Positions 21,312 through 54,670 of a stretch of 64,000 nucleotides of DNA are shown piece by piece. This DNA is from Thermoanaerobaculia bacterium (GTDB taxonomy: Bacteria > Acidobacteriota > Thermoanaerobaculia > Multivoradales > JAHEKO01). The stretch lies in assembly GCA_046756565.1 (NCBI GenBank), contig JBHHWO010000003.1:144-64143 (forward strand), read 5' to 3'. Under the pieces are notes generated by a model. It made no database searches and had not been told where the DNA came from. It saw nothing but the letters and a program-made list of their open reading frames with translations. The position numbers were made by a program, and so were the translations under genes. Position 1 is the first letter of the stretch. Each line of letters begins with the position of its first letter.

Positions 21312-21334
21312 CTCGGGACGCCAGCTCTCGTCGA

Positions 21335-22478: not shown

Positions 22479-22566
22479 CCTCGCTCCCTGCCGAATTTGA
22501 GAGACGAAAGGATAGCAGAACCGTGGCCGCCGAAGCTAGCGAAAACGGCTCGATTCGAGGCTTTTC

Positions 22567-25494: not shown

Positions 25495-25495
<1 letters not shown>
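24758..25495 (-). CDS. bamD: Outer membrane protein assembly factor BamD (YfiO)
   Basis: Lipobox LVSIVSAC followed by TPR repeats typical of BamD (...YFQHAFEVEPNS...). Confidence 0.7.
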
Positions 25496-26144
<649 letters not shown>

Positions 26145-26145
<1 letters not shown>

Positions 26146-26912: not shown

Positions 26913-26949
26913 GAGCGAATGGGCGGTTTCCGGGATTGCCGGAAACCGG

Positions 26950-27465: not shown

Positions 27466-27481
27466 GTCAAGACCTCTCGAA

Positions 27482-28804: not shown

Positions 28805-28957
28805 CTGGATGTAAACCGGCTGGATTCGAGCCGGCTGAGCTCGAAAGCCGGCGGTTTCAGAGGCCAAGCAGGCCGCAGAGGGCGCTCATCATACACCGGT
28901 TGACGGCGCCGACGACCTCGCATGGGCTCGTCCCGCGGGAACCTTGCGAGGTGCCTC

Positions 28958-32826: not shown

Positions 32827-34347
32827 ATGACGAGCGACCTGGCACAACTGGTGCTGATTCTGTACTACTCGACTCTCGGCGTCCTGGCTGTTTACGGCGG
32901 ACACCGTCTGGTGCTCGTGGTCCTCTACTTCCGCACCCGGCACCTTAGCGCACCGGTTCCGCCCGAACCGGAGATCTGGCCTCGGGTCACGGTGCAGCTG
33001 CCGCTATACAACGAGCTCTACGTCGCCGAGCGGCTGATCCGGGCGGTCGGAGAGCTCGACTACCCGAGAGACCGTCTCCAGATCCAGGTCCTGGACGATT
33101 CCAACGACGAAACCCGGGAGATCGTGGCCCGCACGGTCGCCCGGCTCCACAGCCGGGGCATCGACATCGAGCACATCCGGCGGCCGGATCGTACCGGCTT
33201 CAAGGCCGGTGCCCTCGAGTACGGTCTCGGGACGGCCACCGGCGAGCTGGTTGCGATCTTCGACGCCGACTTCGTGCCCCACCCGAGCTATCTCCGAGAG
33301 ATCGTGCCGTACCTCGCCGACGCCGAAGGCCGCGACCTTGGCATGGTGCAGGCCTGCTGGGAGCACTTGAACCGCGACTACTCTCTGCTGACGCGCATCC
33401 AGGCCATCTTCCTCGACGGTCACTTCCTGGTCGAGCACGCGGCCCGCAATCGGAGCGGCTGCTTCTTCAACTTCAACGGCACCGCCGGAATCTGGCGGCG
33501 TCAGGCGATCGTCGACGCCGGCGGCTGGCAGCACGATACGCTGACCGAGGACCTGGACCTTTCATACCGGGCTCAGCTGGCCGGCTGGCGCTTCCTGTTC
33601 CTGCCGGATCTCAAGGTGTCGGCGGAGCTCCCCGTCGAGATCAACGCGTTCAAGCGCCAACAGTTTCGATGGGCAAAGGGATCCATCCAGACGGCGCGCA
33701 AACTGCTTCCGACAATCCTCAAGGCTCCGATCGACTGGAGGATCAAGGCCGAGGCATTCGTTCACCTGACCAACAACGCCAGCTATCTGCTTATGGTTCT
33801 CTTGTCCGTGCTGGTATTTCCGGCAATGGTCTTTCGTCGAGGCTCCCCGGTTACGAGCCTGCTGACGATCGACCTTCCTTTGTTTCTGTGCGCGACGGTA
33901 TCGGTACTGGCATTCTACGCGACTAGCCAGTTGTCCGCTCGGGGCGGTGGCAGACTGAGACAACTGGTGCCGCTGATGGGCCTCGGCATCGGCCTGGGCA
34001 TCAACAATTCGCGGGCGGTCCTCCAGGGGCTCATGAAAGACGTCGGCGTCTTCGAGCGAACTCCCAAGTACCGCATCGAGTCCCGCAACGACAAGTGGCG
34101 TACCAAGAAGTATCGCGTCCGTGCCAACCTCGGCACCGTGCTCGAAGGCCTTCTCGCGGGCTGGTTCGTCATCGCGTTTCTGCTCGCCTGGCAGTGGGGC
34201 ATGTGGTCCTCACTTCCGTTCTTGTACCTGTTCCTACAGGGCTACTGCTACATGTACGCTTTGTCGATGGTCTCGAGCGGCTTCGGCGCTTCCCTCACGA
34301 CACGCCCCGCGGTGGTCCCGGCGCCTCTGGACGGCGGAGGGCCCTGA
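32827..34347 (+). CDS. Family-2 glycosyltransferase, membrane-embedded processive type (CESA/CslA-like)
   Basis: D...DDSND, DADF, and QFRWAKG (QxxRW) motifs plus N- and C-terminal TM helices. Divergently arranged with the GT-C gene (62-bp intergenic). Confidence 0.8.
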   Translation: MTSDLAQLVLILYYSTLGVLAVYGGHRLVLVVLYFRTRHLSAPVPPEPEIWPRVTVQLPLYNELYVAERLIRAVGELDYPRDRLQIQVLDDSNDETREIVARTVARLHSRGIDIEHIRRPDRTGFKAGALEYGLGTATGELVAIFDADFVPHPSYLREIVPYLADAEGRDLGMVQACWEHLNRDYSLLTRIQAIFLDGHFLVEHAARNRSGCFFNFNGTAGIWRRQAIVDAGGWQHDTLTEDLDLSYRAQLAGWRFLFLPDLKVSAELPVEINAFKRQQFRWAKGSIQTARKLLPTILKAPIDWRIKAEAFVHLTNNASYLLMVLLSVLVFPAMVFRRGSPVTSLLTIDLPLFLCATVSVLAFYATSQLSARGGGRLRQLVPLMGLGIGLGINNSRAVLQGLMKDVGVFERTPKYRIESRNDKWRTKKYRVRANLGTVLEGLLAGWFVIAFLLAWQWGMWSSLPFLYLFLQGYCYMYALSMVSSGFGASLTTRPAVVPAPLDGGGP

Positions 34348-34349
34348 GC

Positions 34350-34904
34350 GTGGTAGCCCATCCGGACCATGAGCGGCATGGTGCTCCGGCGGTCACCATT
34401 CGGCCGATCCGACCGTCCGACGCGCCACTCCTGGATCGCTGGCGCCTCGAGCCCAGCGTCCGCGAGCACCAACCGCTGTCTGACTCCTCGACCGCGCAAC
34501 TGCTGGCGGACCTGCACCGGCAGAGACACGAGGACCTCTACGCCTCACGGGGCGAGAAGTTCCAGTGGGTCATCCAGCACGATCTGCGACCCGCGGGCTG
34601 GATCACCCTGGTGATCATCAATTGGAGCCACGGGCTCGCCGAGATCGGGTACGCCCTGTCGACCGAGTTCCAACGCAAGGGCCTGATGGGCCAGGCTCTT
34701 CGGACCCTGCTCTCCGATCTTTTTTCCCGCACCGCGGTGCGGCGGGTCGAAGCCCGGTGCGCGGTCGACAATCAGCCGTCGCAACAGGTCTTGGAACGCG
34801 TCGGCTTCGAGCGAGAGGGCTTCCTGCGTGGCTATTTCGTGCTGCGCGGGAAACCGGTCGACAACTACCTCTACGCGATCCTCAAGAGCGACTGGGCCTC
34901 CTAG
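34350..34904 (+). CDS. GNAT-family N-acetyltransferase (RimJ/RimL-like)
   Basis: GTG start overlapping the GT2 stop (TGAGCGTG). ...IRPIRPSDAPLLDRW...EIGYAL...QRKGLMGQALRTLL...VEARCAVDNQPSQQVLERVGFEREGFLR... GNAT motifs A/B. Confidence 0.7.
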   Translation: MVAHPDHERHGAPAVTIRPIRPSDAPLLDRWRLEPSVREHQPLSDSSTAQLLADLHRQRHEDLYASRGEKFQWVIQHDLRPAGWITLVIINWSHGLAEIGYALSTEFQRKGLMGQALRTLLSDLFSRTAVRRVEARCAVDNQPSQQVLERVGFEREGFLRGYFVLRGKPVDNYLYAILKSDWAS

Positions 34905-34911
34905 AAGACGA

Positions 34912-37083
34912 CTACAGGTACTCGAGGCCGGCGTACTTCGCCACCAGCTTGCGTTTGCCTACGCGGTCGAAGTAGACCGTGAGCTTGCTGGCGTCGCCGT
35001 CCCCTTCACTGCCCAGAACGACGCCGTCGCCCAGGGTCGGGTGCCGCACCCGGCGGCCTCGGGAGAGAGCCCTGGGCTCGGCGCTCGAGCCGCTTCGCCC
35101 GGGCTGGGCGCGGCCGAAGAAGCTGTAGACGCCACTGGTTCTAGGACTGGCAAAGAGGTCCGGACTGTCGGTGATTGTCAGGCTGTCCTCGGGGATCTCG
35201 GCGATGAACCGGGATTGTTCCTGATCCTGATAGCGGCCGGCAATCCGGCGCCGGCGGCAGCAGGTCAGAAAAAGCGTCCGCCGAGCTCGGGTCATTCCCA
35301 CGTACAGGAGCCGCCGCTCCTCTTCGACATCCTCTTCCCCGCCGAGTGCGTTGAAGTGCGGCAGCAGGCCCTCTTCCAGACCGGCCACAATGACTGCGGG
35401 AAACTCGAGACCCTTGGCGCTGTGCAGGGTCATCAGCGAGACGCCGCGATCCGACTGCCAGCCATCGATGTCGGACACCAGTGATGCGTGGTCCAGGAAG
35501 GCGCCCAGGAGGTCGTCCTCCTCATGGCTCTTCTCCTCCACGAACTCGTGGATCGCGGTGACGAACTCGCGGATGTTTTCGAACTTGGCTTGTGACTCCG
35601 GGTCCTCCTTGCGGTAGAGCTCGAGGTAGCTGGTCTCTTCCAGGAGCTTCTCGATCAGGTCGGGCAGCGCGAGGCGCTCCGCGGCCTCGCTCAAACCCAC
35701 GATCAGGTCGCGAAAACCGGTCAGTGCCTTGGCGCTTCTCTGCGGGAACCGGCCCGGCTGAAGATGCCGCAGAGCGTCCCACAGGGTCGAGCCGCTGGAG
35801 GCGACGCTCTGATCCAGAAGTTCCCGGGTCGCCTTGCCGATGCCGCGCGGCGGCTGGTTGATCACCCTGCCGAGCGAGAAGTCGTCCTGAGGATTGCGCA
35901 GCAGGCGCAGGTAGGCGACGAGATCCTTGATCTCGGCACGCTCATAGAAGCGCAACCCACCCACCAGAACGTAGGGAATCCGCCGATCCAGCAGTCGCTC
36001 CTCGACCACACGGGTCTGGGCATTGGTTCGGACCAGCACCGCCATCTCGCTCCAGCGCCGTTTGTCGTGCAATTGCTCGAGCGTGTTGGCGATCCAGCGC
36101 GCTTCATCCTGCTCGTCGCCCGCTCGGTAGAGCTCGACCGGATCACCGTCTCCCGAGTCGGTCCACAGCTTCTTGCCACGGCGCCGGCTGTTGTTCGCGA
36201 CCACCGCTCCCGCCACCGTGAGGATGTTCTGGGTGGAGCGGTAGTTCCGCTCGAGCTTGCGGACCTGGGCCTCCGGAAAGTACTTCTCGAAATCAAGTAC
36301 GTTGTCCAGATCCGCTCCCCGCCACCGATAGATGCCCTGATCCTCGTCTCCAACCGCCGTCAGGTTGCCGGCTGCACCGATCAGCTCCAGCACCAGATGC
36401 ATCTGCGCGTGATTGGTATCTTGAAACTCGTCCACCATCAGATAGTGGATTCCGTCCCGGAGACGCTGGCGCACGTCCTCGTGTCCCTTGAGAAGCGCCA
36501 CGGCGAGGCGCAGCATGTCGTCGAAATCGACCCCGGCGGCCTTCTGGAGAAGCCCCTGATAGGTGCGGTAGATGCCTGCGACCTTCTGATCGAAGAAGCT
36601 TCTGGCCTCGGCTTCGAACGCCGACGGATCGAGGAGCCGGTTCTTGGCCGCGCCGATCGCCGCCAGAACACTGCGCGGGGGATAGGACGAGTCGGCCAGC
36701 CCTTCCTGCTGAAGCGCCTTTTTGACCATCCGGATCTGATCATCCCGGTCGAAGATCAGAAAGCCGTGCTTCAACCCCACCCGCTCGCCGTAGCGCCGCA
36801 GGAGGCGCAGGGAGAAACCATGAAAGGTGCCGACGAAGCTCGGCAAAGGCTCGATCCGCACCAGACCTTCGACCCGCTCACGCATCTCCGCCGCCGCCTT
36901 GTTGGTGAAGGTGACCGCCACGATGGCGGCGGGATCGATTCCCAGTCCCTCGACCAGCCAGGCCACCCGGTGGGTGATGACGCGGGTCTTGCCCGATCCG
37001 GCGCCCGCCAGAACCAGCTGCGGCCCTTCCCCGTGGGTGACCGCCTCGAGCTGCTGCGGATTGAGGTCGCGTTCGAGGTCCAA
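34912..37083 (-). CDS. uvrD: ATP-dependent DNA helicase UvrD/PcrA
   Basis: ...LNPQQLEAV...LVLAGAGSGKTRVITHR... (motif I), DEFQDTN (motif II), and a full SF1 helicase core. Confidence 0.9.
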   Translation of the reverse strand: MDLERDLNPQQLEAVTHGEGPQLVLAGAGSGKTRVITHRVAWLVEGLGIDPAAIVAVTFTNKAAAEMRERVEGLVRIEPLPSFVGTFHGFSLRLLRRYGERVGLKHGFLIFDRDDQIRMVKKALQQEGLADSSYPPRSVLAAIGAAKNRLLDPSAFEAEARSFFDQKVAGIYRTYQGLLQKAAGVDFDDMLRLAVALLKGHEDVRQRLRDGIHYLMVDEFQDTNHAQMHLVLELIGAAGNLTAVGDEDQGIYRWRGADLDNVLDFEKYFPEAQVRKLERNYRSTQNILTVAGAVVANNSRRRGKKLWTDSGDGDPVELYRAGDEQDEARWIANTLEQLHDKRRWSEMAVLVRTNAQTRVVEERLLDRRIPYVLVGGLRFYERAEIKDLVAYLRLLRNPQDDFSLGRVINQPPRGIGKATRELLDQSVASSGSTLWDALRHLQPGRFPQRSAKALTGFRDLIVGLSEAAERLALPDLIEKLLEETSYLELYRKEDPESQAKFENIREFVTAIHEFVEEKSHEEDDLLGAFLDHASLVSDIDGWQSDRGVSLMTLHSAKGLEFPAVIVAGLEEGLLPHFNALGGEEDVEEERRLLYVGMTRARRTLFLTCCRRRRIAGRYQDQEQSRFIAEIPEDSLTITDSPDLFASPRTSGVYSFFGRAQPGRSGSSAEPRALSRGRRVRHPTLGDGVVLGSEGDGDASKLTVYFDRVGKRKLVAKYAGLEYL

Positions 37084-37086
37084 CGT

Positions 37087-38910
37087 CTATTCCACGGTCA
37101 CGCTCTTAGCCAGATTCCGCGGCTGGTCGACGTCCGCGCCCCGCCGAACCGCCATGTAGTAGGCAAACAGCTGGAGCGGCACGACGTTGACCACCGGCTG
37201 CAGAAGCTCCGAGACCCGCGGCACCTGAACGACTTCGTCGGCTGCGGTCTCGACCTCAGAAGCCCTGCGATCGGTCAACGCCATGACGATGCCCTCGCGG
37301 GCACGCACTTCCTGCATGTTGCTCACCATCTTTTCGAACACCCGATCGCCGGTAGCTACCGCGACCACCGGCATCTTGCGATCGATGAGAGCGATGGGGC
37401 CGTGCTTCATCTCGCCCGCCGGATATCCCTCGGCGTGAATGTAGGAGATTTCTTTGAGCTTGAGCGCACCCTCTAGCGCGATCGGATAGTTGAGGCCCCT
37501 TCCGATGTAGAGAAAATCCCGCGCCTCGAAATAGACCCGCGCCAGGCGCTCGTAGGCTTCCGCCTCGGCCAGCACCTCCCCCACCGCGCCCGGCAAGTGC
37601 GCCAGATCGGTAAGCAGATCGCCGACTTCGCCTCGGCCGGTCTGCAGGCGCATGTAGACGGCCAGCAGGTAGAGGGCCACCAGCTGGGTCGTGAACGCCT
37701 TGGTCGACGCGACTCCGATCTCGGGCCCGGCGTGGGTATAGATGACGCCTTCCGAGATCCGCGTGGCCTGGCTCCCGACGACGTTGCACACCGAGAGCAG
37801 CTTGGCGCCGCGCTCCCGGGCGGCCTCCATCGCCGAGATCGTGTCCGCGGTCTCGCCCGACTGCGAGATTCCTACGACCAGGTCTCCTGGAGCCACCAAC
37901 GGATTTCGATACCGGTACTCGGAGCCGTAGTCGACCTCGACCGGGATGCCCACCAGCTCCTCGAGCAGGAACTGGCCGACCAGAGCCGCGTGCCACGAAG
38001 TGCCGCACGCGAGAAGGTGGATCCGGCGCGCGGCCTCGATCTCGTCGCCCGACAGCTCCAGCGTGTCGAATCCGACCTTTTCGACCTCGAAGTCGACGCG
38101 CCCGGCGAAGGTGTCCTGGATGGCCTGCGGCTGCTCGTGGATCTCCTTGAGCATGAAGTGCTTGAAGCCGCCCTTTTCGGCCTGGATCGGATCCCAGTTG
38201 AGCCGGACGATTGGTCGCTCGACACTGGAGCCGTCTACGGCCCAGGTCTCAACCTCGCTGTCGGTGAGCCTCGCCAGGTCCCCGTTCTCGAGAAAGACCA
38301 CGTCCCTTGTGAAGGCCAGAAGCGCCGAAGGATCCGAGGCCAGGAAGTTCTCCTCTTCCCCGAGACCCAGCACCAGGGGCGGTCCCTGGCGGGCGGCGAC
38401 GATCTCGCCCTCGGACGACTCGACCGAGATGACCGCAAAGGCATACATGCCCTCGAGCTCGGCTACCGACCGCCGCACCGCCTCGAGCAGATCGCCATCG
38501 AGATGCGAGCTCACCAGGTTGGCGATCACCTCGGTATCGGTGTCCGACACGAAGCTCCAGCCTTCCGCGCGCAGTCTCGTCTTGAGCTCCAGAAAGTTCT
38601 CGATGATGCCGTTGTGGATGAGTGCCAGCCGGCCCTTGCAGTCGTTGAGTGGATGAGCGTTGCGCTCGCTCGGAATGCCGTGCGTCGCCCAGCGTGTGTG
38701 ACCCAGGCCGTAGCTGCCCGCAAGGCCGCTGCCCTCGAGCTTCGCCGCCAGCTGGTCGAGCTTGCCTTCTGCCTTGATCGTCTTGAGCTCGCCGTTGGAT
38801 CGGACCACGACTCCGGCGGAGTCGTAGCCTCGATATTCCAGGCGACGAAGACCATTCACCAGCAGCGGCACCACATTCTGGCTTCCGAGATAACCGACAA
38901 TCCCGCACAT
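37087..38910 (-). CDS. glmS: Glutamine-fructose-6-phosphate aminotransferase
   Basis: MCGIVGY... N-terminal nucleophile Cys; two SIS domains; C-terminal ...KSVTVE. Confidence 0.95.
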   Translation of the reverse strand: MCGIVGYLGSQNVVPLLVNGLRRLEYRGYDSAGVVVRSNGELKTIKAEGKLDQLAAKLEGSGLAGSYGLGHTRWATHGIPSERNAHPLNDCKGRLALIHNGIIENFLELKTRLRAEGWSFVSDTDTEVIANLVSSHLDGDLLEAVRRSVAELEGMYAFAVISVESSEGEIVAARQGPPLVLGLGEEENFLASDPSALLAFTRDVVFLENGDLARLTDSEVETWAVDGSSVERPIVRLNWDPIQAEKGGFKHFMLKEIHEQPQAIQDTFAGRVDFEVEKVGFDTLELSGDEIEAARRIHLLACGTSWHAALVGQFLLEELVGIPVEVDYGSEYRYRNPLVAPGDLVVGISQSGETADTISAMEAARERGAKLLSVCNVVGSQATRISEGVIYTHAGPEIGVASTKAFTTQLVALYLLAVYMRLQTGRGEVGDLLTDLAHLPGAVGEVLAEAEAYERLARVYFEARDFLYIGRGLNYPIALEGALKLKEISYIHAEGYPAGEMKHGPIALIDRKMPVVAVATGDRVFEKMVSNMQEVRAREGIVMALTDRRASEVETAADEVVQVPRVSELLQPVVNVVPLQLFAYYMAVRRGADVDQPRNLAKSVTVE

Positions 38911-40328
38911 CAGCTATTCGATCTCCGCTTCTTCGAGCCGGCCCTGTCCTTGCGATCGGCCCAGCCCTGCAAGTTGCGTTGTCGCGCGCGGCCCACCCCC
39001 AGCCCGCCTTCCGGCACATCCTGGGTGATCACCGAGCCCGCGGCGGTCGTCGCTCTGTCGCCGACTCGAACCGGCGCAACCAGCATGGTATCGCTCCCAA
39101 TGAAGGCGCCGGCTCCGATCTCGGTTCGATGTTTGGCTTCGCCGTCGTAGTTGCAGGTCACTGTCCCGGCACCGATATTGGCTCGATCGCCGATCTCTGC
39201 GTCGCCCAGATAGGACAGATGCCCCGCTTTGACGCCGCTGCCAAAAGTCGAGTTCTTGATCTCGACGAAGTTGCCGACGCGGCAGCCGGTACCGAGGTGA
39301 GCGCCCGGCCGCAGCCTGGCGTACGGGCCCACGCGGCAACCGGCCTCGACGGTCGAGTCTTCGATCACGGTCATCGGGCCGATCTCGGCATCGCGCCCGA
39401 CTCGGGCGTTTCGAATCCACGCGCCCGAGTGGACAATCGCTCCCGACTCGATCGTCGTATCTCCAGCCAGGGTCACGCCGGGATGGATCACGGTATCGGC
39501 CGCGATCGCGACACCGGCTTCGATGACCGTCCGCTGCGGCTCGAGAATCGTCACGCCGGCCACCATCAGCTCGGCGCACTTGCGATCCAGCAGCAGGCGG
39601 TGAACGCGGGCGAGATCCGCTCGGTCGTTGACGCCGAGGGCCTCATCGACATCGGCGAGCTCGAACAGCCCCAGCTGCGTTCCGGCTTCGGCCGCAGCGG
39701 TGAACGCGTCGGTGAGATAGAGCTCACCCAGGGCGTTCGAGGGACGCAGATTGGACAGGTGGGGCTCGATCTCGGCCGACGGAACGACGTAGATTCCCGC
39801 GTTGACCGTGCGCACCGCCAACTCGTCGGCGCTCGCATCCGCAGCTTCGACAATGCGTGCCAAGGTGCCATCCGGCCCGGCGATCACGCGACCGAGCGAA
39901 CCCGGCGAGCTCTGTTCGGCAACCGCAAGCGCCCAGCCGGTCCCCGCGTGGTCGAGCAAGGAGACGAGAGTCGAGCCGGTCACCAGCGGCACGTCGCCGG
40001 AGAGCACCAGCAGCCGTGCCGGCGCGTCGAGAGCCGTGACGGCGCGGGCAAGCGCGTCGCCGGTGCCTCTCTGGTCGAGCTGTTCGACCCACTCCGGTGT
40101 CGGCCCGGAGCCGGCTTGAGCGAAGGTCGAGCGTACCGCCCCGGCTCCATGGCCGATCACGGCCAGGACCCTTTCGCAGCCGGCATCGGCCGCGGCCCGA
40201 AGAACCCACTCGAGCAGGGGCCGGCCCGCCGCACGGTGCAGCACCTTGGGCTTCGCCGAGCGCATACGAGTTCCGCGCCCAGCGGCCAGAACGACGGCAA
40301 CGGTCGGCAGCTGGGAGGCTTCGGTCAT
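38910..40328 (-). CDS. glmU: Bifunctional UDP-GlcNAc pyrophosphorylase / GlcN-1-P acetyltransferase
   Basis: ...LAAGRGTRMRSAKPKVLH... nucleotidyltransferase motif and C-terminal left-handed beta-helix hexapeptide repeats; 1-bp overlap with glmS. Confidence 0.9.
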   Translation of the reverse strand: MTEASQLPTVAVVLAAGRGTRMRSAKPKVLHRAAGRPLLEWVLRAAADAGCERVLAVIGHGAGAVRSTFAQAGSGPTPEWVEQLDQRGTGDALARAVTALDAPARLLVLSGDVPLVTGSTLVSLLDHAGTGWALAVAEQSSPGSLGRVIAGPDGTLARIVEAADASADELAVRTVNAGIYVVPSAEIEPHLSNLRPSNALGELYLTDAFTAAAEAGTQLGLFELADVDEALGVNDRADLARVHRLLLDRKCAELMVAGVTILEPQRTVIEAGVAIAADTVIHPGVTLAGDTTIESGAIVHSGAWIRNARVGRDAEIGPMTVIEDSTVEAGCRVGPYARLRPGAHLGTGCRVGNFVEIKNSTFGSGVKAGHLSYLGDAEIGDRANIGAGTVTCNYDGEAKHRTEIGAGAFIGSDTMLVAPVRVGDRATTAAGSVITQDVPEGGLGVGRARQRNLQGWADRKDRAGSKKRRSNS

Positions 40329-40356
40329 GCTTCTAGTCTAGCCGGGAGCCGAGCAG

Positions 40357-41403
40357 CTATGACGCTTGCCGGTCCGAAACGCGCCTTTGCGCGAGATCCA
40401 GCACCGCGCTCCGAAGCTTGCCCGGGTCGTGGCGGATCAGATCGCCTTCCTCGAGCAGATCGGCCCCGATCAGGGCCGGTCGCCCTTCCGAGGCGCGGTG
40501 CTCGGGCATCCGGACCGGCTCGGCTCCGGCCTCCGCATAGCGACTCACTACCCCTTCCGGAAGGGCGCCCCGGTGCGCGAGGACCACGTCCACGAGATCA
40601 AGACCCGCATGCCGCCGGAGCGCTTCGAGGTGTGCCGCAGCATCCATGCCGTCGGTCTCACCCGGCTGGGTCATCAAGTTGAGCACCAGCGCGACCTGAG
40701 CGTGGCTCCCCGCGAGGGCGTCGGCGATCCCCGCGATCAGCAAATTGGGCAGAATCGAGGTGTAGAGAGATCCCGGACCCAACAAGATCAGGTCCGCGGC
40801 TTCGATCGCTTCGATGGCGGGAGGAAACGCCGCGGCCCGGACCGGCTCGAGCTCCATGGTCTCGAGCGCCTCACCGGACCGGCCGATCGCCGATTCGCCT
40901 TCGTACTCCGTGCCCGAGATTCCCCGACCCCGGAGCCTGACGTCCGTCAGGGTCGCCGGAAGGATCCGCCCGCGCACCGAGAGAATCGATTCGGCGGTCA
41001 GAATCGCCTGCGAGAAATCGCCTGTGATTCCGGTCAAGGCGGTCAGGAACAGGTTACCGAAGGAGTGCCCGGCCAGGCCCTCGCCCATCGCAAAGCGGTA
41101 TTGGAAGAGCTTGGCGACCAGATCCTCGTCGTCGGCCAGCGCCACCAGGCAATTGCGGATGTCCCCCGGTGCGGGCACGCCGAAGTCTCGACGCAGGCGC
41201 CCAGAGGAGCCGCCGTCGTCGCTGACCGTCACGATCGCGGTCAGATCCGAGAGCTCGTCGTCGACCGCGGGCTTCAGAGCCCTGAGCAGTACGGCGAGGC
41301 CGGTGCCGCCACCGACCGCGACGACCCGCGGAAGCTTGGATTCAGTTGCCTGCAAAAAGAGACGCGTGATCAGGGTCGCTCCGCAGGGAGTCGAAATCCT
41401 CAT
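40357..41403 (-). CDS. yvcK: YvcK/UPF0052 (CofD-like) family protein
   Basis: ...VVAVGGGTGL...VTVSDDGGSSG...GPGSLYTSI... Start ambiguous: TTG 41415, ATG 41403 or TTG 41355; all overlap the upstream gene's 3' end. Confidence 0.75.
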   Translation of the reverse strand: MRISTPCGATLITRLFLQATESKLPRVVAVGGGTGLAVLLRALKPAVDDELSDLTAIVTVSDDGGSSGRLRRDFGVPAPGDIRNCLVALADDEDLVAKLFQYRFAMGEGLAGHSFGNLFLTALTGITGDFSQAILTAESILSVRGRILPATLTDVRLRGRGISGTEYEGESAIGRSGEALETMELEPVRAAAFPPAIEAIEAADLILLGPGSLYTSILPNLLIAGIADALAGSHAQVALVLNLMTQPGETDGMDAAAHLEALRRHAGLDLVDVVLAHRGALPEGVVSRYAEAGAEPVRMPEHRASEGRPALIGADLLEEGDLIRHDPGKLRSAVLDLAQRRVSDRQAS

Positions 41404-41974
41404 CGTGAGCCGCAACCACCCGGTTCCGGGCGTTGGCGTCGATCGCCTTGGTCAAGAAATCCGCGGCCTTCTCGTCGTCGCCCTGAAGGGCGTGAATCGC
41501 AGCCGCCAGATACGCGAAGCGCTCGTCCTTCGCGGACCGTCCGCCCCGCATGCAGATATCGAGTGCCTGGTCGAGCTCGCCGCGATTGCGCAGGAAAACG
41601 GCCTCCAGATATGGATCGTCGGCTCCCTGGCCCTTTTTGGCCAGGTTGTGCTCGCAAACCGCCAGATAGCGCCGGGCGCTCTGCCCGAGGGAGGGCAGGT
41701 CGGTTGCCTTGCGCACCTGCTCGAGCATCTTCGCGGCCTCTCGCCACTTCTTCTGATAGGTGGCTTTCACCGCTTTCTCGAACAGCTTGACGTTGGGATC
41801 GTCTGCCAGGTTGGGCGCGACGACCATGTCGTGGGCCGTGAGACCCAGCTCGGTGAGCTTGGCTTCCACGGTATCGGCGTCGGTCTTGAATCGCTCGGCA
41901 AGCTCCGCGAGGCGACGCTTCTTCGCATAGCGCTTCAGGTAGGTCAGGTCTCCGGATTTCCAGCGCTTCGCCAT
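41342..41974 (-). CDS. Hypothetical protein (basic N-terminus, TPR-like C-terminal half) encoded between mglA and yvcK
   Basis: 210-aa high-GC3 ORF with 3-bp spacing to mglA; helical repeat-like ...YLAVCEHNLAKKG... / ...YLAAAIHALQGDDEKAADFLTKAID.... Confidence 0.5.
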   Translation of the reverse strand: MAKRWKSGDLTYLKRYAKKRRLAELAERFKTDADTVEAKLTELGLTAHDMVVAPNLADDPNVKLFEKAVKATYQKKWREAAKMLEQVRKATDLPSLGQSARRYLAVCEHNLAKKGQGADDPYLEAVFLRNRGELDQALDICMRGGRSAKDERFAYLAAAIHALQGDDEKAADFLTKAIDANARNRVVAAHDEDFDSLRSDPDHASLFAGN

Positions 41975-41977
41975 GCT

Positions 41978-42562
41978 CTACCTTTTCCTCAGTTCGACCA
42001 GGATCTGTTTCGCCACCGCCTTGAGCGTGTCGAATACGCCAACGCCCTGGGGAGCTACCGCTTCGAACGTCGGCTCGCGCTTGTAGTTGAGCATCCGGTA
42101 CATCTCGTCGACCGGCATGGCGTTGGGAAGGTCGCGTTTGTTGAACTGCAATGCCGACGGAACCGTCTTCAAGTCGAAGCCGTGATCGCGCAGGTTCGCT
42201 TCCAGATTGCGAATCGACTCGACGTTCGCCTCCATGCGCTCACGCTGGCTGTCGGCCACGAAGATCACGCCGTCCACGCCTTTGAGGATGAGCTTCCGAC
42301 TGGCGTCGTAGAAGACCTGGCCGGGCACGGTATAGAGGTGGAAGCGAGTCGTAAAACCGCGGATCGACCCGAGATCGAGCGGCAGGAAATCGAAAAACAG
42401 CGTTCGGTCCGCCTCGGTAGCAAGTGAGATCATCTTGCCCTTCCGGTCGGGCGCGGTCTTGTTGTAGATGTACTGGAGGTTGGTCGTTTTGCCGCCCAGG
42501 CCGGGGCCGTAGTAGACGATCTTGCAGTTGATCTCCTTGGCCGCATAGTTGATGAACGTCAT
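41978..42562 (-). CDS. mglA: Ras-like small GTPase MglA
   Basis: [36 protein letters not shown]...[33 protein letters not shown]... is near-identical in pattern to Myxococcus MglA. Confidence 0.9.
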
Positions 42563-42608
42563 CGCTGATCTCTGTGCCTATCGACTACCTGTGGAACGAC
42601 TCGCAGAC

Positions 42609-43088
42609 CTATTCGCTGAACAGGGCGTCGATGTCCTCGTCGGTGATCTCCGAGAACGGGCTGGGCTCCGAAACGCCCTCCTCCGGGAGCGCCTTGGCGT
42701 CCATCTCATCGAAGACCTTCTTGAGCTCCACGCTCGCTCGCTTGACTCTCAAACGCACCAGCCCCAGAGACGAGCGCTCGTCGAAGATCACCAGGAGAAT
42801 CGCACGGCGCGCGACGATCGAGATATGGATGTGGTCCCGCTGCCCCTCGTGGAAGAGGACGGAGAACTCCCGTTCACCGATCAGCTTGGCCAGGCCGTCG
42901 GTCGCGGCGACGTTGCCAGCGGTCAGCGAGGCCAGGGAGGTCGAATCGAACTCTTCGGTCTCGCCCGCGGCCGCAATGTGCTGGCCGTTCTTGTCGATCA
43001 GGAAGACCGCCTTGGCGTTGGCGTCCTGGCGGAGCCTGCGCAGGGCGTCCTCTAGACGCCGAAACTCTGTTTCGAAAACTACTTCCAT
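42609..43088 (-). CDS. mglB: Roadblock/LC7-domain GTPase-activating protein MglB
   Basis: Roadblock fold sequence upstream of mglA (...AVFLIDKNGQHIAAAG...); acidic C-terminal tail. Confidence 0.8.
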   Translation of the reverse strand: MEVVFETEFRRLEDALRRLRQDANAKAVFLIDKNGQHIAAAGETEEFDSTSLASLTAGNVAATDGLAKLIGEREFSVLFHEGQRDHIHISIVARRAILLVIFDERSSLGLVRLRVKRASVELKKVFDEMDAKALPEEGVSEPSPFSEITDEDIDALFSE

Positions 43089-43206
43089 GATCGGGACTTA
43101 CCTGGATGGACTCTATTCCCCCGGCACCAAAGGCGCCGCGAAAAATATCACAACCCCCACGGTTTACTCCAAACACTGATGGTACGGTATTTAGCCCTGT
43201 CTGAGA

Positions 43207-44886
43207 ATGGCTTCCGGGCGGGTTTTCGACGGAATCCTCATGCGCGCGCTCGTCCCCCCGAGATCCACGGCGTCTCGCGACCGCGACTTCGAAGGCCTGG
43301 GCTCGGAATCCTGGGATCTCCTGGTCATCGGCGGCGGAATTACCGGCACCGCTGTGGCCCGCGACGCCGCCCTTCGGGGCCTGAGAACGGCCCTTGTCGA
43401 GCAGGGCGACTTCGCGTTCGGAACCTCTAGCCGCTCCTCGCGACTGGTTCACGGCGGCCTGAGATACCTGGCGGACTTTGATTTCTCGTTGGTGCGCGAG
43501 GGGCTGGTCGAGCGCAAACGGCTCCTCGAGGCGGCTCCGGGGCTGGTACGGCCTGTGCGATTCACCTACCCGGTCTATCGCGGCGACCCCGACGGCCTCT
43601 GGAAGGTACACCTGGGGGTGCGTCTCTACGATGCGCTGTCGTTCGGCTACGGACTCGGTGACACCGAAAAACTCAACCGCGATCGGCTCTTGGCGTCCGT
43701 TCCCGGACTGCGCCGGGACGGTCTCGTGGGAGCGGTCACCTACTTCGACGCCGCGACCCACGACACCCGGCTGACCCTGGCGGTGGCTCGCTCGGCGCGA
43801 GACGCCGGAGCGCTTCTGGTGCCGCGCTGCCGGGCACTGGGCCTCACCGGAGACTCCGAATCGAGCCAGGGCGCCGAGATCGCGGACCTTCTGGGCGATC
43901 GACGTGTCCAGGTGCGGGCCAAGGCCACGGCGCTCTGTTGTGGTCCGTGGCAGACCCTCTATCCGCCGGCCACGGTCGAGCTCCGAACCGCGCGCGGCAC
44001 TCACATTTCGCTCAAGAACCGGCGGATTCCGCTCGACGGCTACATCGCTCTGCGCTCGCCTCGGGACGGCCGCTTCGCCTTTGCGATGCCGATCGGTCGT
44101 TACATCGTCTTCGGCACCACCGATACCGACGATCGCGTCGAGCCGGGCTTGGTCCGGCCGTCGGCCGAGGACACCGAATATCTGCTCGAGCTCGCCAATC
44201 ACGCCTTCCCGGCAGTCGACGTGACCGCCGACGACGTCACCGGCGCCTGGGCCGGGTTGCGGCCGCTGGTCGCCGAAAGCGGCGAGGAAGACGCCGACGC
44301 CTTGTCGCGACGCCATCAGATCGTCCCCGGCCCGCCGGGCCTGTGGATCCTCACCGGCGGCAAGCTCACCACCCACCGGCGCATGGCGGAGGATCTGGTC
44401 GACGAGATCGCGCCGTTTCTGGAGCGGGCGGGAGTCGCCGTCGGCGACTGCCGCACACAGGAAGGTCGCTTCTCGTCCGCTTCGCTCGAATCAGGCGGGC
44501 ATCGTCTTGCCGCCGTGGGAGTCTCCGAGGCTGCGATCGATTCGGCCGCCGGCCTCTACGGACCTATGATCGAGGAGCTCTCGGTCCGCGTCCAGACACC
44601 CGAAGGCGCCGAGCCCGACGCCGCGCTTCGCCGAGCCCAGATCGCAATGGCGGTCGAAGATGAGTGGGCGCTTTCCCTCGACGATCTCCTGCTCCGCCGG
44701 CTCGAGCCCGGTCCTCTCGATCTCAAGGCCTGCTGGAGCGAAGCTCCTGCAGCCGCGCACGAGCTGGGCTCGCGGCTCGGCTGGACCGACGACGAGATAA
44801 GGCATCAGGCCGCCGAGCTCCGCGGCGGCATCGAGCGCGATCTCGAAGCGGCTGACGTGCCGCTGCCACGCAGCACCCACGAGTAG
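43207..44886 (+). CDS. glpD: FAD-dependent glycerol-3-phosphate dehydrogenase
   Basis: DLLVIGGGITGTAVARDAALRGL...GTSSRSSRLVHGGLRYL... GlpD/GlpA signature. The true start may be the internal ATG at 43240. Confidence 0.85.
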   Translation: MASGRVFDGILMRALVPPRSTASRDRDFEGLGSESWDLLVIGGGITGTAVARDAALRGLRTALVEQGDFAFGTSSRSSRLVHGGLRYLADFDFSLVREGLVERKRLLEAAPGLVRPVRFTYPVYRGDPDGLWKVHLGVRLYDALSFGYGLGDTEKLNRDRLLASVPGLRRDGLVGAVTYFDAATHDTRLTLAVARSARDAGALLVPRCRALGLTGDSESSQGAEIADLLGDRRVQVRAKATALCCGPWQTLYPPATVELRTARGTHISLKNRRIPLDGYIALRSPRDGRFAFAMPIGRYIVFGTTDTDDRVEPGLVRPSAEDTEYLLELANHAFPAVDVTADDVTGAWAGLRPLVAESGEEDADALSRRHQIVPGPPGLWILTGGKLTTHRRMAEDLVDEIAPFLERAGVAVGDCRTQEGRFSSASLESGGHRLAAVGVSEAAIDSAAGLYGPMIEELSVRVQTPEGAEPDAALRRAQIAMAVEDEWALSLDDLLLRRLEPGPLDLKACWSEAPAAAHELGSRLGWTDDEIRHQAAELRGGIERDLEAADVPLPRSTHE

Positions 44887-44970: not shown

Positions 44971-45795
44971 TTAGGCGGTCTTGCGGGCCGTCGAGCGCTT
45001 CGGCGCCCGCTTGGCCGGTCGCTTGCGCGAGCGTCCGCCCCCGACCAGGCCCGTGATGACGTAGGTGCCGGCGCGCGGGTCCTTCTTGAGCTTGATCAGC
45101 TTGCTCTTCTCCGCGTCCTCCAGGAGCTCGGAGAACGAAGAGTAGCCGTAGTAGCCCTCCGAGAAGGACGGCCGCTTCCTCTGCATGGTCTGCTTGACCA
45201 TCGAGCCCCAGAGAACGTCCTTGTTCTCGCGTTGGAGGGCGTGAATCGAGTCGATCATGAGGGTGAAGGCCTCGGCGTTCTTGTCGGAGACGCCCGACGC
45301 GGTCTTGATCTTCGGGGTCGCCTGCGACTCGCGCCAGACGTCCTCGTAGAAGATGAACTCGTCGCAGTTGTCGATCAGGAGGTTGGCCGACGAGTTCTTG
45401 ACGCCGACGCCGATCACCATCTTGTTGTTTTCCTTCAGCTTGGTCACCAGCGGCGTGAAATCGCTGTCGCCGGTCAGGACGACGAAGGTGTCGATGTGCT
45501 CCTTGGAATGAGAGACGTCCATGGCATCCACGACCATCTTGATGTCGGCCGAGTTCTTGCCGGAGTAGCGCCGCTTCGGGATGTCGATGAGTTCGATTCC
45601 GGCCTCGTGGAACTCGCGCTTGAAGTCGCGGTAGCTCTCCCAGTCGGCGTACGCCTTCTTTACGATGATCTTTCCCTTCTCGACCAGTCGCTCGAGAATC
45701 AGGTTGATGTTGAGTTTCTTGATATCCGAATCGCGCACTCCGAGCGCGATGTTTTCCAGATCGCAGAACAAAGCGATCCGCTTTTCGTCATTCAC
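44971..45795 (-). CDS. NYN (LabA-like PIN-fold) domain protein with C-terminal OST-HTH/LOTUS domain
   Basis: N-terminal ...IALFCDLENI...VLTGDSDFTPLV... (NYN); C-terminal ~70-aa OST-HTH-like region; Lys/Arg-rich tail. Somewhat AT-richer than neighbours. Confidence 0.7.
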   Translation of the reverse strand: MNDEKRIALFCDLENIALGVRDSDIKKLNINLILERLVEKGKIIVKKAYADWESYRDFKREFHEAGIELIDIPKRRYSGKNSADIKMVVDAMDVSHSKEHIDTFVVLTGDSDFTPLVTKLKENNKMVIGVGVKNSSANLLIDNCDEFIFYEDVWRESQATPKIKTASGVSDKNAEAFTLMIDSIHALQRENKDVLWGSMVKQTMQRKRPSFSEGYYGYSSFSELLEDAEKSKLIKLKKDPRAGTYVITGLVGGGRSRKRPAKRAPKRSTARKTA

Positions 45796-49671: not shown

Positions 49672-51555
49672 ATGGGCTTCGAAAGTCTTGCCGCTAGCGC
49701 TTTGCGCCAGGTGCGCATACGAAATCAAGGTGGTCTCGCAGTGACACTCCCGATCGAAGAAGTCCTCGAGGGCAAGTACGAGATCCTCGAGAAGATCGGT
49801 GAGGGCGGAATCGGATCCGTCTACAAGGTCCGCCACCGGTTGCTCGACGAGATCCGGGTCATCAAGGTCCTGCGGCCCCAAGTCGCGGCCAAGGAAGATC
49901 ATCAGGAGCGCTTCCTTCACGAAGCCCGCATGGCGATTCGGCTCAAGCACCCGAACATCGCCCAACTCCACGATTTTTCGATCTCCGACGAAGGCACCGC
50001 CTTCATCGTCATGGAGTTCATCGACGGCATCGCACTCGACGCCCTACTCAAGGCCTCCGGCCCGCCCAGCCTCGATCTGACGCTGGAGATGGCGCAGCAG
50101 TCATTGCGGGCACTGGCCTATCTCCACTCTCATGAGCTGGTTCACCGCGATGTGTCGCCGGACAACTTGATGCTGACCACGTCGTTCGACGGCACCGCGC
50201 GCATCAAGCTGATCGACCTGGGCATCGCCAAGAACCTGGCCGAGGAAAGCAACCTGACACAGACGGGCGTTTTCCTGGGCAAGGTCCGTTACTGTTCACC
50301 CGAGCAGTTCTCGAGCGCGGAAGATCAGACCCGGCCGCTCGATCATCGCAGCGACATCTACTCATTCGGACTACTGCTTTACGAGCTCCTGACCGGTATC
50401 TACCCGTTCAAGGGCGAGACCTTTGCCGAGCTGGCGGGCTGCCATCTGTTCCAGCCGCCGATCGGTTTCGATCAGACGGATCCCGAGGGCAAGGTGCCCG
50501 ATGAGTTGCGCGAGGTCGTGCTGCGATCCATCGCAAAGGATCCCGAGGACCGCTTCTCTACCGCCGAAGAGTTCGTTCAGGAGCTGCTTCCGTTTCGCGA
50601 CACCGAGAGCTCGATCGAGGACGAGCTCAATCGCACGGTCGAGCGAACGACCTCAGCGATCGCTCTCAAGAACTACACTCGCCCGGGTTCCACCCAGGAC
50701 CGTCTGAACGCCGAGTTCGGGCTCGGCACCACGGCCGCGCCCAAGCCGCTGACCGAGGCTCGGCAGCCAGAAGCAGCTGGCGCAAGAGGTACGGCCTCGG
50801 CGGTATTGCCTACAGCCGGCGGCCCGGCCAAGAAATGGTGGTGGATCGCCGGAGGCGGCGCAGCCGTGGTCCTGGCGGGTCTCGGCATCTGGCTCGGTAG
50901 CTCCGTTCTGGGCCGAGACTCGGGCGACACGGCGGGTGACGGCTCCTCCGAGGCGCAGGCTATAGAGATCGCGCAGACCGAGAGATTCACTCTTCCCGAG
51001 GTTGACCCCGACCGGGTGGCTCTCGACGCCGCGCTGCCTCCTCCGCCCACCGGAGACGAAGAGAAAGCGGCCCCTCAGGTCGAACCTGGAACTGATGCTC
51101 CCGGTCCCTCCCAGCTCGGACCGGACCCGGACCCGGAAGACGGACGCCGGCCTCCGCTCGGTGACCCTCAGTTCCAGGGGAGACCCCCACCCCACGGTGG
51201 GCGTCCGCCGCCGGGGAGTCGGCCGGGAGAGCTCGGTCCACCACCGATCGGCCGGACTTCGGAGATCTATGAGACCAGCGTGGGGGTGGTCGCTCCGGTG
51301 CTGGAGATGCTGCCCGAGCCGATGTATCCGGACGGCAAGCGGCCCAAGAACCGTCTCACGGTGGACGTCGCGGTGCTGGTCGACGAGGAAGGCAAGGTGC
51401 TCACCGCCCGGGTCGAGGCCGGCGCAGGGTTTCGGCGCCGCTTTCGCGACGCCGCCATCGAGACCGCGAAGCGATCGAGATTCCGCCCCGCGGTTCGCAA
51501 CGGCGTCGCAGGCCGCATGTGGACCAGTCTCAAGATCGTATTCGAGACCGAGTAG
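49672..51555 (+). CDS. Ser/Thr protein kinase with TM helix, Pro-rich periplasmic linker and C-terminal TonB_C-like domain
   Basis: Kinase motifs IGEGGIGSVYKV, VIKVL, HRDVSPDNLML, DLGIAK, SPEQ. TM WWWIAGGGAAVVLAGLGIWLG. PPxxG-rich spacer. C-terminus ...PEPMYPDGKRPKNRLTVDVAVLVDEEGKVLTARVE...AAIETAKRSRFRPAVRNGV... resembles TonB_C. Confidence 0.8.
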   Translation: MGFESLAASALRQVRIRNQGGLAVTLPIEEVLEGKYEILEKIGEGGIGSVYKVRHRLLDEIRVIKVLRPQVAAKEDHQERFLHEARMAIRLKHPNIAQLHDFSISDEGTAFIVMEFIDGIALDALLKASGPPSLDLTLEMAQQSLRALAYLHSHELVHRDVSPDNLMLTTSFDGTARIKLIDLGIAKNLAEESNLTQTGVFLGKVRYCSPEQFSSAEDQTRPLDHRSDIYSFGLLLYELLTGIYPFKGETFAELAGCHLFQPPIGFDQTDPEGKVPDELREVVLRSIAKDPEDRFSTAEEFVQELLPFRDTESSIEDELNRTVERTTSAIALKNYTRPGSTQDRLNAEFGLGTTAAPKPLTEARQPEAAGARGTASAVLPTAGGPAKKWWWIAGGGAAVVLAGLGIWLGSSVLGRDSGDTAGDGSSEAQAIEIAQTERFTLPEVDPDRVALDAALPPPPTGDEEKAAPQVEPGTDAPGPSQLGPDPDPEDGRRPPLGDPQFQGRPPPHGGRPPPGSRPGELGPPPIGRTSEIYETSVGVVAPVLEMLPEPMYPDGKRPKNRLTVDVAVLVDEEGKVLTARVEAGAGFRRRFRDAAIETAKRSRFRPAVRNGVAGRMWTSLKIVFETE

Positions 51556-53811: not shown

Positions 53812-53815
53812 CTCT

Positions 53816-54670
53816 TCAACCTTCCTCGACCAAACGTCCCTCGAGGCGGCCGAAGACGACCCGCTCTCCGACCGGAAGCTCGACTTCACCCTCCGTCTGG
53901 GCGCCCGCCACGAACGTGTGGTTGCGGCTGCCTTCGTCGCGCACCAGCACCTTGTCGCCCGTCACGGTCACTACCGCGTGACGGCGAGAGACGTCCGGGA
54001 CGTTCAGGCGCACTCGGGCGTCCTTGGTGCGACCGACGAGGTTTTCGCCCTCGTCGAGCTGGAAGCGCTGGACTCGGCCCGCCATCTGGAGCTCCAGAAA
54101 CAGGCGGCGGCCGGGCGCACCCGGCTGCGCAGGCCTGCTTGCGCTCGCGCTCGCCTCGGCCAGGATCTCGGGAATCGGCACGACGACCTTCTCGACACGA
54201 GTACCGCCGTCGTCCGCCAGCTCCTTGGACGCGGCCGGCTTCTTTTCTGCCAGCTCGTCCTCGGACCGCTTCTCCTCGGCTCCGTCGTCGCGCAGGGCCG
54301 CCGGCAGAATTGGGATCTCGCCGTCCGTTTGCGTCTTGTCGACGGGAGGGATATCGATGGTGTCGAACTCACCGCCTTCGGTATCGAGAGCCTGAAAGAT
54401 AAACCTCTCGCTACCGCCGAAGCAGACCATGCTGAGCGGACCGATCGGCTCCGGCCGCTCGAGGCGCACGCCGTCCACTTCGGTGCCGTTCAGGCTTCCG
54501 AGGTCCTCGATCAGATACCTCTCGCTGTCGGTATCGAACGCAATCCGGGCGTGCTCGGTCGACACCACCGAAGCCTGGATGCACACCGTGCTCTCGGCCG
54601 AGCGCCCGATCGTGGCCTCGGCGCCGATCTCGAACTCACCGTGCTCGCGTGATATCAGTTTTGCCTTCAT
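53816..54670 (-). CDS. Tandem FHA-domain protein
   Basis: FHA 1: ...ATIGRSAESTVCI...VSTEHARIAF...YLIEDLGSLNGTEVDGVRL.... FHA 2: ...LVGRTKDARVRLNVPDVSRRHAVVTV..VLVRDEGSRNHTFV.... ATG at 54670 overlaps the upstream stop by 4 bp. Confidence 0.75.
   Translation of the reverse strand: MKAKLISREHGEFEIGAEATIGRSAESTVCIQASVVSTEHARIAFDTDSERYLIEDLGSLNGTEVDGVRLERPEPIGPLSMVCFGGSERFIFQALDTEGGEFDTIDIPPVDKTQTDGEIPILPAALRDDGAEEKRSEDELAEKKPAASKELADDGGTRVEKVVVPIPEILAEASASASRPAQPGAPGRRLFLELQMAGRVQRFQLDEGENLVGRTKDARVRLNVPDVSRRHAVVTVTGDKVLVRDEGSRNHTFVAGAQTEGEVELPVGERVVFGRLEGRLVEEG

Follow-up and report, generated by a model that had tools for sequence, protein, structure and literature searches.

A seven-gene mglBA-TPR-glmR-glmU-glmS-uvrD run in Thermoanaerobaculia, and an Acidobacteriota family of TPR proteins whose genes adjoin glmU

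To our knowledge, MglA and MglB form the best-studied bacterial polarity switch, and its known outputs are all motility or predation machines, with placement of the Rod complex as the single exception. glmU and glmS, the genes of UDP-N-acetylglucosamine (UDP-GlcNAc) synthesis, are essential in model bacteria, and in the Firmicutes glmS is under ribozyme control. We analyzed a stretch of 64,000 nucleotides (nt), hereafter the window, from a metagenome-assembled genome (MAG) of the Thermoanaerobaculia (Acidobacteriota) with a G+C content of approximately 65%, in which these two sets of genes stand in a single run. Seven genes, all on the minus strand, follow one another in the order mglB, mglA, a gene for a 210-amino-acid (aa) tetratricopeptide repeat (TPR) protein, yvcK/glmR, glmU, glmS, and a uvrD/pcrA-like helicase gene (Table 1). 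The whole analysis was performed in silico, and the loci compared with the window are mostly contigs of MAGs. We focus on the TPR gene, which stands between the polarity genes and the precursor genes.

The proteins and genes at the head of the run resemble the group-1 MglA/MglB of Myxococcus xanthus (PDB 6hjh, 6h5b, 6izw) in their full-length similarity, the mglB-mglA order and the short spacer between the two genes. In M. xanthus, however, mglBA has masABK as its divergent upstream neighbor (PMC3546991), whereas here it leads a seven-gene run with envelope-precursor genes. An earlier survey (2014) of prokaryotic small GTPases described the neighborhoods of group-1 MglA as ones that 'vary widely' (PMC4316618). 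A published precedent for a connection between polarity and the cell wall is the control of Rod-complex peptidoglycan synthesis by MglA/MglB in the germination of M. xanthus spores (bioRxiv 10.1101/818641; review PMC8144978), although UDP-GlcNAc precursor genes and operon organization play no part in that system. TPR proteins functionally tied to MglA are also on record, namely SgmX of M. xanthus and Bd2492 of Bdellovibrio (PMC7519303, PMC3983030), and the window TPR gene adjoins mglA, on its downstream side. Unlike it, neither SgmX nor Bd2492 is reported to be encoded immediately after mglA, no sequence relationship between them and the window TPR protein was found beyond generic TPR similarity, and the family of the window protein is mostly found without mglBA. 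SgmX is also about five times longer than the window protein.

On the precursor side, GlmR of Bacillus subtilis binds UDP-GlcNAc and stimulates GlmS (PMC7525490, PMC6171935), so that the grouping of yvcK, glmU and glmS makes functional sense. Binding of UDP-GlcNAc and stimulation of GlmS by YvcK/GlmR are known only for the Bacillus and Listeria proteins (PMC7525490, PMC10128056). The window resembles the GlmR-GlmS-UDP-GlcNAc circuit of B. subtilis in that a yvcK/glmR ortholog lies beside glmU and glmS. In the Firmicutes, however, glmR belongs to a yvcJ-glmR-yvcL (whiA) operon (PMC10986989), whereas here it is placed inside the glmU-glmS run, after mglBA and the TPR gene. A further difference is that an Rfam search detected no glmS ribozyme here, and that glmR is missing from about 16 of 80 related loci.

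MglA is approximately 83% identical to M. xanthus MglA over residues 1-193, and it also matched the Thermus protein 3t12_A (E 5e-75). Group-1 MglA proteins are marked by the P-loop GxxxxGKT, an intrinsic Arg finger (Arg53) and a Thr-x-x-Gly-Gln motif (Thr78/Gln82) that replaces DxxGQ; in the window protein, the P-loop, Arg53 and LYTVPGQ (Thr78/Gln82) aligned identically to those of M. xanthus MglA. MglB, encoded directly upstream of mglA, matched M. xanthus MglB 6h5b_B (E 1.7e-51), with residues 3-159 aligned and the C-terminal SPFSEITDEDIDALFSE helix among them. The Thermus-type equivalog NF052242 (76.3 bits versus a cutoff of 200) was not assigned because the protein is of the Myxococcus type, with that helix. 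By these sequence marks, the first protein is assigned to the group-1 MglA proteins and the second is its Roadblock/LC7 partner, with a predicted role as GTPase-activating protein. YvcK is by the same token a clear YvcK/GlmR ortholog, for which ligand binding is predicted. The helicase is placed in the UvrD/PcrA family by its superfamily 1 (SF1) Pfam domains but is not assignable to either ortholog, as it missed the NCBIfam equivalog cutoffs of both (PcrA, 741.9 versus 911.2; UvrD, 670.2 versus 1144.45).

The original prediction for this locus, made from the sequence alone, had proposed these gene identities, which are borne out by the Pfam and NCBIfam scores and by the sequence matches in the structure database. 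It had also described the genes as co-oriented, and all seven do lie on the minus strand. Its description of MglA as highly similar to the myxobacterial motility/polarity GTPase agrees with the identity found over 193 residues. The spacings that it gave were reread from the sequence and are identical; along the run, gaps of 46 and 3 nt are followed by an overlap, a gap of 28 nt, an overlap of 1 nt and a last gap of 3 nt. The TPR gene starts 3 nt past the mglA stop codon and in the same frame as mglA, and the 1-nt overlap is formed by the glmS start on the glmU stop. The start of yvcK is uncertain; TTG at 41355 would give a 14-nt overlap with the TPR gene, and ATG at 41403 or TTG at 41415 would give a larger one. 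In related loci, the conserved part of yvcK begins right at the TPR stop codon. On the 3' side of the helicase gene lies a convergent open reading frame (ORF) on the plus strand, which ends at 34904.

A divergent glpD-like gene is separated from mglB by 118 nt, and in this gap lies a promoter-like element, 56 to 84 nt upstream of the mglB ATG. Its pattern has a single match across the 64-kb window, both strands included. Related loci have elements of this type equally far upstream of mglB, 23 of 76 with the exact 17-nt spacing, for 0.018 expected per stretch. In one locus without mglBA (L027), an element of this type, TTGACG-17-GATACT, lies upstream of the TPR gene. The mglB promoter region contains the conserved stretch TGTGATAnTTTCGCG. 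Between 34500 and 43600, neither a terminator-like hairpin or site on the coding strand nor, in a strict sigma-70 scan, a promoter-like site, internal ones included, was found. Rfam run at a permissive threshold on 34000-44000 reported no glmS ribozyme or credible RNA, its two matches being far below gathering scores. As the gap between the mglA stop and the TPR start is only 3 nt, glmU and glmS could have a promoter of their own only within coding sequence. Co-transcription of the seven genes from a promoter upstream of mglB, which the original prediction had called probable, is likely because the gene order recurs across related loci; the tight spacings, the lack of a terminator-like site or Rfam element in the regions searched and the one conserved promoter-like element agree with it. 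The element itself would serve as that promoter, judging from its sequence and position. Just past its -10 hexamer, we also observed a conserved TGTGATAnTTT(C/T)GCGC (window 43089-43206; upstream of mglB in L001-L080), longer than a promoter requires, which may represent an operator or else a conserved region around the start site.

To define how far this arrangement extends, a pattern search was seeded with the alignment of the 210-aa family. It yielded 80 loci, one per GTDB species, whose neighboring genes were identified by tblastn with the seven window proteins. The labels of 79 of them are Acidobacteriota, Thermoanaerobaculia, 'Multivoradales' or Holophagales. mglA lies directly upstream of the TPR gene in 75 of the 80 loci; one locus is cut by a contig end and four have no mglA there, making 75/79 informative cases. 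mglB precedes mglA in 73/80. Downstream of the TPR gene, yvcK follows directly in 64 loci and is not found there in about 16, glmU follows the TPR gene or yvcK in 74 (two undetermined and four not adjacent, hence 74/78), and glmS follows glmU in 54/80. In most loci of this clade, the TPR gene starts about 3 to 30 nt past the mglA stop, and in some the distance is longer. With mglA upstream in 75/80 and glmU following in 74/80, the arrangement of the window is not due to chance. Six loci found starting from MglA proteins instead all read mglB-mglA-(172- to 200-aa protein)-CofD, with glmU and then glmS directly next in three of them, glmU after a 5-kb insertion in two and past the contig end in one. 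The upstream flanks differ between lineages, with glpD in the window, glpK/GDPD in L081-83 and a Ser/Thr kinase gene in L084-86, so that the block itself is the conserved unit.

The block is not invariant. Four clade loci lack mglBA at the locus, and in these the TPR gene is intact with the clade motif GGRxxKD(E/D)RFAYLAA and is followed by yvcK, glmU or uvrD. One of them is on a complete chromosome (L027 5208-7624; OZ245024.1) and corresponds to the window locus at 41342-44886 minus mglBA, with the NYN/LOTUS gene, the divergent glpD-like gene and TPR-yvcK-glmU-glmS-uvrD all present. At L084-L086 (9115-14400), we noted an insertion that separates yvcK from glmU and consists of an XRE-type helix-turn-helix (HTH) gene and unrelated genes over about 5 kb; this junction is thus breakable with mglB-mglA-TPR-yvcK left intact. 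The single locus labeled otherwise (L024; CAXMQZ010000109.1, 'uncultured Polyangiaceae bacterium') has the full acidobacterial arrangement, and its MglA is 90% identical to that of the window, closer than Myxococcus MglA. It is probably a mis-binned contig, and transfer is less likely. Across the clade loci, identity to the window ranges from 75 to 99% for MglA and from 36 to 76% for the TPR protein. It may be remarked how strongly MglA is conserved, as far as another phylum (Myxococcus, approximately 83%), next to a TPR protein that goes down to 36%. A 307-aa "MglA" that looked like a possible fusion (P0174) was rejected as an assembly artifact, being a duplicated chimera with a garbled tail.

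Outside this clade, the family of the TPR protein is much larger. A word-index search with the 210-aa protein gave 296 matches, and a profile search of 1.84 billion cluster representatives gave 64 at E<=1e-30 and 643 at E<=1e-10. Most profile matches cover the core only, at positions from about 57 to 208, and the N-termini vary. The named sources of the confident matches are all Acidobacteriota, Terriglobia included. We then sampled the genomic contexts of ten distant family members, checked by tblastn. The TPR gene is immediately upstream of glmU in nine of the ten, abutting it or overlapping it by 4 nt in L088, L094 and L095, and upstream of yvcK in the remaining one (L092). glmU is followed by glmS and then uvrD in three contexts (L087, L091, L093), and lpxC lies upstream of the TPR gene in L094. 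mglBA occurs within 6 kb in only one context, L088 (4660-8225; JACQSX010000045.1), where mglA (66% identical) and mglB (47%) directly precede TPR-glmU but are encoded on the other strand. In that locus, as read from its sequence, the neighborhood persists without co-transcription.

Gene order thus points to glmU, and more loosely to glmS and uvrD, as the constant partner of the TPR family, and not to mglA. The original prediction had singled out the 210-aa ORF as a candidate MglA-associated factor and had called for a survey of mglBA loci for it. That survey found it clade-wide, within genomes of the Thermoanaerobaculia/Holophagae type. Nevertheless, it does not appear to be a factor specific to MglA, since its family is Acidobacteriota-wide and lies upstream of glmU in nine of the ten distant contexts and near mglBA in one. 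Association with mglA throughout the family, by which we would recognize a gene of an MglA module, was found in one clade (75/79) and hardly at all elsewhere (1/10). The same holds for the link between polarity and peptidoglycan precursors that had been proposed. The part that stands is that MglA and MglB are likely co-expressed with envelope-precursor genes in this lineage; linkage of the TPR gene to mglBA throughout the family does not hold. The idea is narrowed to co-expression in one lineage because nine of the ten distant contexts, L027 and three other clade loci lack mglBA there, and because the neighborhoods in M. xanthus and in the published survey differ.

A database entry with 100% identity to the 210-aa protein is hypothetical protein ACE5GX_00765 [Thermoanaerobaculia bacterium]. 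The AlphaFold2 (AF2) model of the 210-aa protein, built with 32 homologs, has a mean predicted local distance difference test score (pLDDT) of 88.6 and consists of three short helices followed, after residue 60, by ten TPR-type helices. The head modeled alone gave a pLDDT of 84.8. Pfam TPR models scored below cutoff on the protein (22.2 versus 32.7); the NCBIfam end-of-group match together with the modeled helical repeat identifies it as a predicted TPR repeat protein. The search for a specific relative in the PDB was unsuccessful, as sequence and fold searches gave generic TPR proteins only (PcrH, MamA, designed CTPRs and PlcR). With Foldseek, the folds nearest to the head were nearly all DNA-binding HTH or winged-HTH domains (Lrp/AsnC, OxyR, PurR, FapR, Rex, homeodomains and FeoC). 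A GcrA-like or Myb-like N-terminal HTH was discarded because Pfam (residues 1-59) and Foldseek gave no such match.

N-termini across the family are of three kinds, an HTH-like head, a histone-H1-like tail of 30 to 140 residues rich in Lys, Ala and Pro, and rare other extensions. The HTH-like head characterizes the window type and also a branch of 286-aa proteins in which the linker is long and acidic or proline rich. Most other branches have H1-like tails, as do the Holophagales-type members of the mglBA-linked clade. In L030 and L051, the head is combined with an Ala/Lys/Pro-rich linker. The conserved TPR core thus bears interchangeable N-termini resembling nucleic acid binders (window 41840-41974; L039-L080 and L088-L096; P0331, P0355 and P0346). 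This layout recalls the HTH-TPR regulators of the RRNPP type, e.g., PlcR, with a small helical N-terminal head, a C-terminal TPR sensor and a gene that heads genes it might control. It differs from them in that the fold match to PlcR was non-significant (E 0.036, TM-score 0.32), the head consists of three helices, the whole protein is far shorter, and a basic disordered tail replaces the head in most of the family; nor did HTH_3/XRE match the protein or its head in Pfam.

Our preferred reading is that the ancestral unit was probably TPR-glmU-glmS(-uvrD), an old core common to the Acidobacteriota, which mglBA and yvcK joined later. In the Thermoanaerobaculia/Holophagae-type lineage, mglBA would have come to separate the promoter from the TPR gene, and glmR to separate the TPR gene from glmU. 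The result would be one seven-gene operon with a single sigma-70-type promoter upstream of mglB, its genes being translationally coupled where they overlap or lie 3 nt apart. Because its constant partner gene is glmU, we read the TPR protein as an accessory or regulatory factor of UDP-GlcNAc synthesis. It would be a cytoplasmic protein in two parts, a variable nucleic-acid-binding-like head and a conserved TPR core of about 150 aa, and it might act as a DNA-tethered sensor or adaptor that tunes the expression or activity of glmU/glmS alongside GlmR. Tethering to DNA is preferred because both alternative N-terminal modules look like nucleic acid binders. A single transcript, DNA binding and a regulatory role are what we infer from these data. 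We rate the picture of a glmU-operon core with a TPR accessory or regulatory factor as having somewhat better than even chances, and its DNA-binding detail lower.

Several observations weigh against this reading. DNA binding by the head is a guess drawn from a model, as all of its Foldseek matches are non-significant (E>=1.1) and Pfam on the 59-residue head (E<=10) gave a weak FeoC-like match below cutoff (E 0.013), along with weak matches to HP0268 and DUF4250. H1-like tails act on DNA without sequence specificity and poorly suit a repressor that binds an operator; they could bind RNA, membrane or polyphosphate instead. The conflict between such tails and a sequence-specific repressor is the weakest step of our explanation. 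With respect to the single promoter, the strict sigma-70 scan also missed the promoter-like element upstream of mglB, whose -35 hexamer matches at 3 of 6 positions, and a consensus scan may similarly have missed promoters within coding sequence. A protein of 403 aa (P0312; JGI metagenome contig of 4149 nt) would speak for the TPR-glmU core in that it joins a basic tail and TPR core in frame to the N-terminal nucleotidyltransferase domain of GlmU (…LVEPEEALHVLILAAGLGKRMKS…), but this fusion, found on one contig, may be an assembly or frameshift artifact because its last approximately 50 residues (from about 355) look frameshifted. The direction of events, insertion versus loss of mglBA, is deduced from distribution rather than from a rooted phylogeny. 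Finally, linkage to mglA within the clade (75/79) is as strong as linkage to glmU (74/78), so that a role with MglA is possible.

Such a role is the substance of one alternative, in which the TPR protein is an effector or regulator of MglA, as SgmX and Bd2492 are, and relays the polarity state of MglA-GTP to the supply or location of GlmR, GlmU and GlmS. TPR proteins are known among the partners of MglA-GTP (SgmX, PMC7519303; Bd2492, PMC3983030), and MglA/MglB steer peptidoglycan synthesis by the Rod complex in germinating Myxococcus spores (bioRxiv 10.1101/818641). The short distance from mglA to the TPR start in nearly all clade members (3 to 25 nt), linkage in 75/79 informative species genomes and in all six MglA-seeded contexts, and the position of mglBA beside TPR-glmU in L088 in spite of the inversion are consistent with it. 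However, the TPR family extends far beyond its linkage to mglBA, nine of the ten distant contexts having no mglBA within 6 kb and yet glmU or yvcK, and the four clade loci without mglBA retain an intact TPR gene with the clade motif. The TPR protein also evolves fast next to a near-frozen MglA, and its homology is detectable to generic TPR proteins only. We therefore regard a dedicated MglA effector as unlikely.

It may also be that mglBA landed, or was retained, at the head of a strong constitutive housekeeping operon and that its position reflects descent and dependence on the promoter, with no connection between MglAB and UDP-GlcNAc. That the run combines a DNA helicase with functionally unrelated sugar-nucleotide enzymes is in line with such hitch-hiking; uvrD has no obvious link to the other genes, and its sharing the run means that mixed operons exist here. 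In some lineages, the locus can do without mglBA or without yvcK, as four loci lack the former and about 16 the latter, and no conserved neighborhood was reported for group-1 MglA (PMC4316618). Against this, the order is kept among TPR proteins of 36 to 50% identity and between wholly different upstream flanks, which outlasts usual neutral synteny, and mglBA is still beside TPR-glmU after the inversion in L088. Neutral retention seems improbable to us as well. We are very doubtful of a last proposal, which goes further than our preferred reading of a TPR accessory factor. It holds that a phylum-wide regulator of UDP-GlcNAc, made of a basic tail or HTH and a TPR core, fills the role of the glmS ribozyme or GlmY/GlmZ and has in this clade been wired to MglA-GTP through the TPR protein and GlmR. 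If true, MglA would have an output that couples polarity or surface behavior to envelope-precursor supply, separate from motility machines.

The individual genes of the run are of known kinds. The class-wide mglBA-TPR-(glmR)-glmU-glmS operon appears to be undescribed, as does the phylum-wide family of basic-tail/HTH plus TPR proteins tied to glmU. Our literature search found no paper naming MglA together with YvcK, and nothing published on the control of UDP-GlcNAc synthesis in Acidobacteriota. An mglBA pair close to the Myxococcus type at the head of a glmU/glmS/glmR operon across a class-level lineage suggests where to seek a role of MglA other than motility, and the glmU-tied TPR family offers a concrete candidate for the control of UDP-GlcNAc in Acidobacteriota. 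If neither idea holds, the locus is a conserved mixed housekeeping operon.

Table 1. Features of the seven-gene run and of the TPR protein. Positions are those of the window.
Feature	Position	Strand	Description
mglB	42609..43088	(-)	Roadblock/LC7 predicted GTPase-activating protein, 159 aa; Pfam PF03259 (Robl_LC7) 50.9 bits (cutoff 23)
mglA	41978..42562	(-)	Ras-like polarity GTPase, 194 aa; E 7e-96 to M. xanthus MglA 6hjh_A
210-aa TPR gene	41342..41974	(-)	Unnamed Acidobacteriota family; NCBIfam TPR_END_plus 48.8 bits (cutoff 32)
yvcK/glmR	40357..41355 (or to 41415)	(-)	CofD family, UDP-GlcNAc-binding type (predicted); TIGR01826 340.1 bits (cutoff 196), Pfam CofD 328.6 bits
glmU	38910..40328	(-)	Bifunctional GlcNAc-1-P uridyltransferase/GlcN-1-P acetyltransferase; TIGR01173 512.3 bits (cutoff 366.85)
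glmS	37087..38910	(-)	Glutamine--fructose-6-phosphate transaminase; TIGR01135 799.6 bits (cutoff 418.05)
uvrD/pcrA-type SF1 DNA helicase gene	34912..37083	(-)	Final gene of the run; Pfam UvrD-helicase 266 bits, UvrD_C 254 bits, PcrA/UvrD tudor domain
Promoter-like element TTGGAG-17 nt-GATATT	43144..43172	(-)	Extended -10, its TG being two bases upstream of the -10 hexamer
HTH-like three-helix head, residues 1-45	41840-41974	(-)	AF2 helices 7-16, 22-28, 33-43
Linker, residues 46-58		(-)	Flexible in the AF2 model (44-58)
TPR core, residues 59-208	41351-41800	(-)	Ends in the TPR end-of-group motif

No Rom, MglC, pilus or gliding genes were found among the annotated ORFs of the window, a scan that covered the ORFs beyond 16900 except for some small ones. 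Genes of glycerol metabolism flank the operon head in different lineages, a glpD-like FAD oxidoreductase gene in the window (43207-44886, plus strand) and in L027, and genes for a GDPD phosphodiesterase and an FGGY kinase in L081-L083 (4143-6388). At 44971-45795 on the minus strand, the window encodes a protein with NYN and OST-HTH/LOTUS domains, whose third-position G+C is unusually high (0.90); the same gene adjoins glpD in L027. Further along, a gene for a Ser/Thr protein kinase with a C-terminal TonB_C domain (49672-51555, plus strand) lies beside one for a fusion of a pyridine-nucleotide-disulfide oxidoreductase and an FHA domain (51586-53889, minus strand), and the two may form a phospho-signaling pair. 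The end of the window (57103-63999, minus strand) is occupied by redox genes, encoding a cNMP-binding and 4Fe-4S protein, multiheme cytochromes (c554/c7-like and NapC/NirT-like) and a 498-aa ORF without Pfam match. Beyond uvrD, the region at 16976-28867 is rich in envelope and division genes, for ftsE/ftsX-like proteins, an SLT lytic transglycosylase, BamD/YfiO, a triple-PASTA protein and an RseP-type M50 protease, and in the same region uppS- and cdsA-like ORFs were identified by eye from their translations only.

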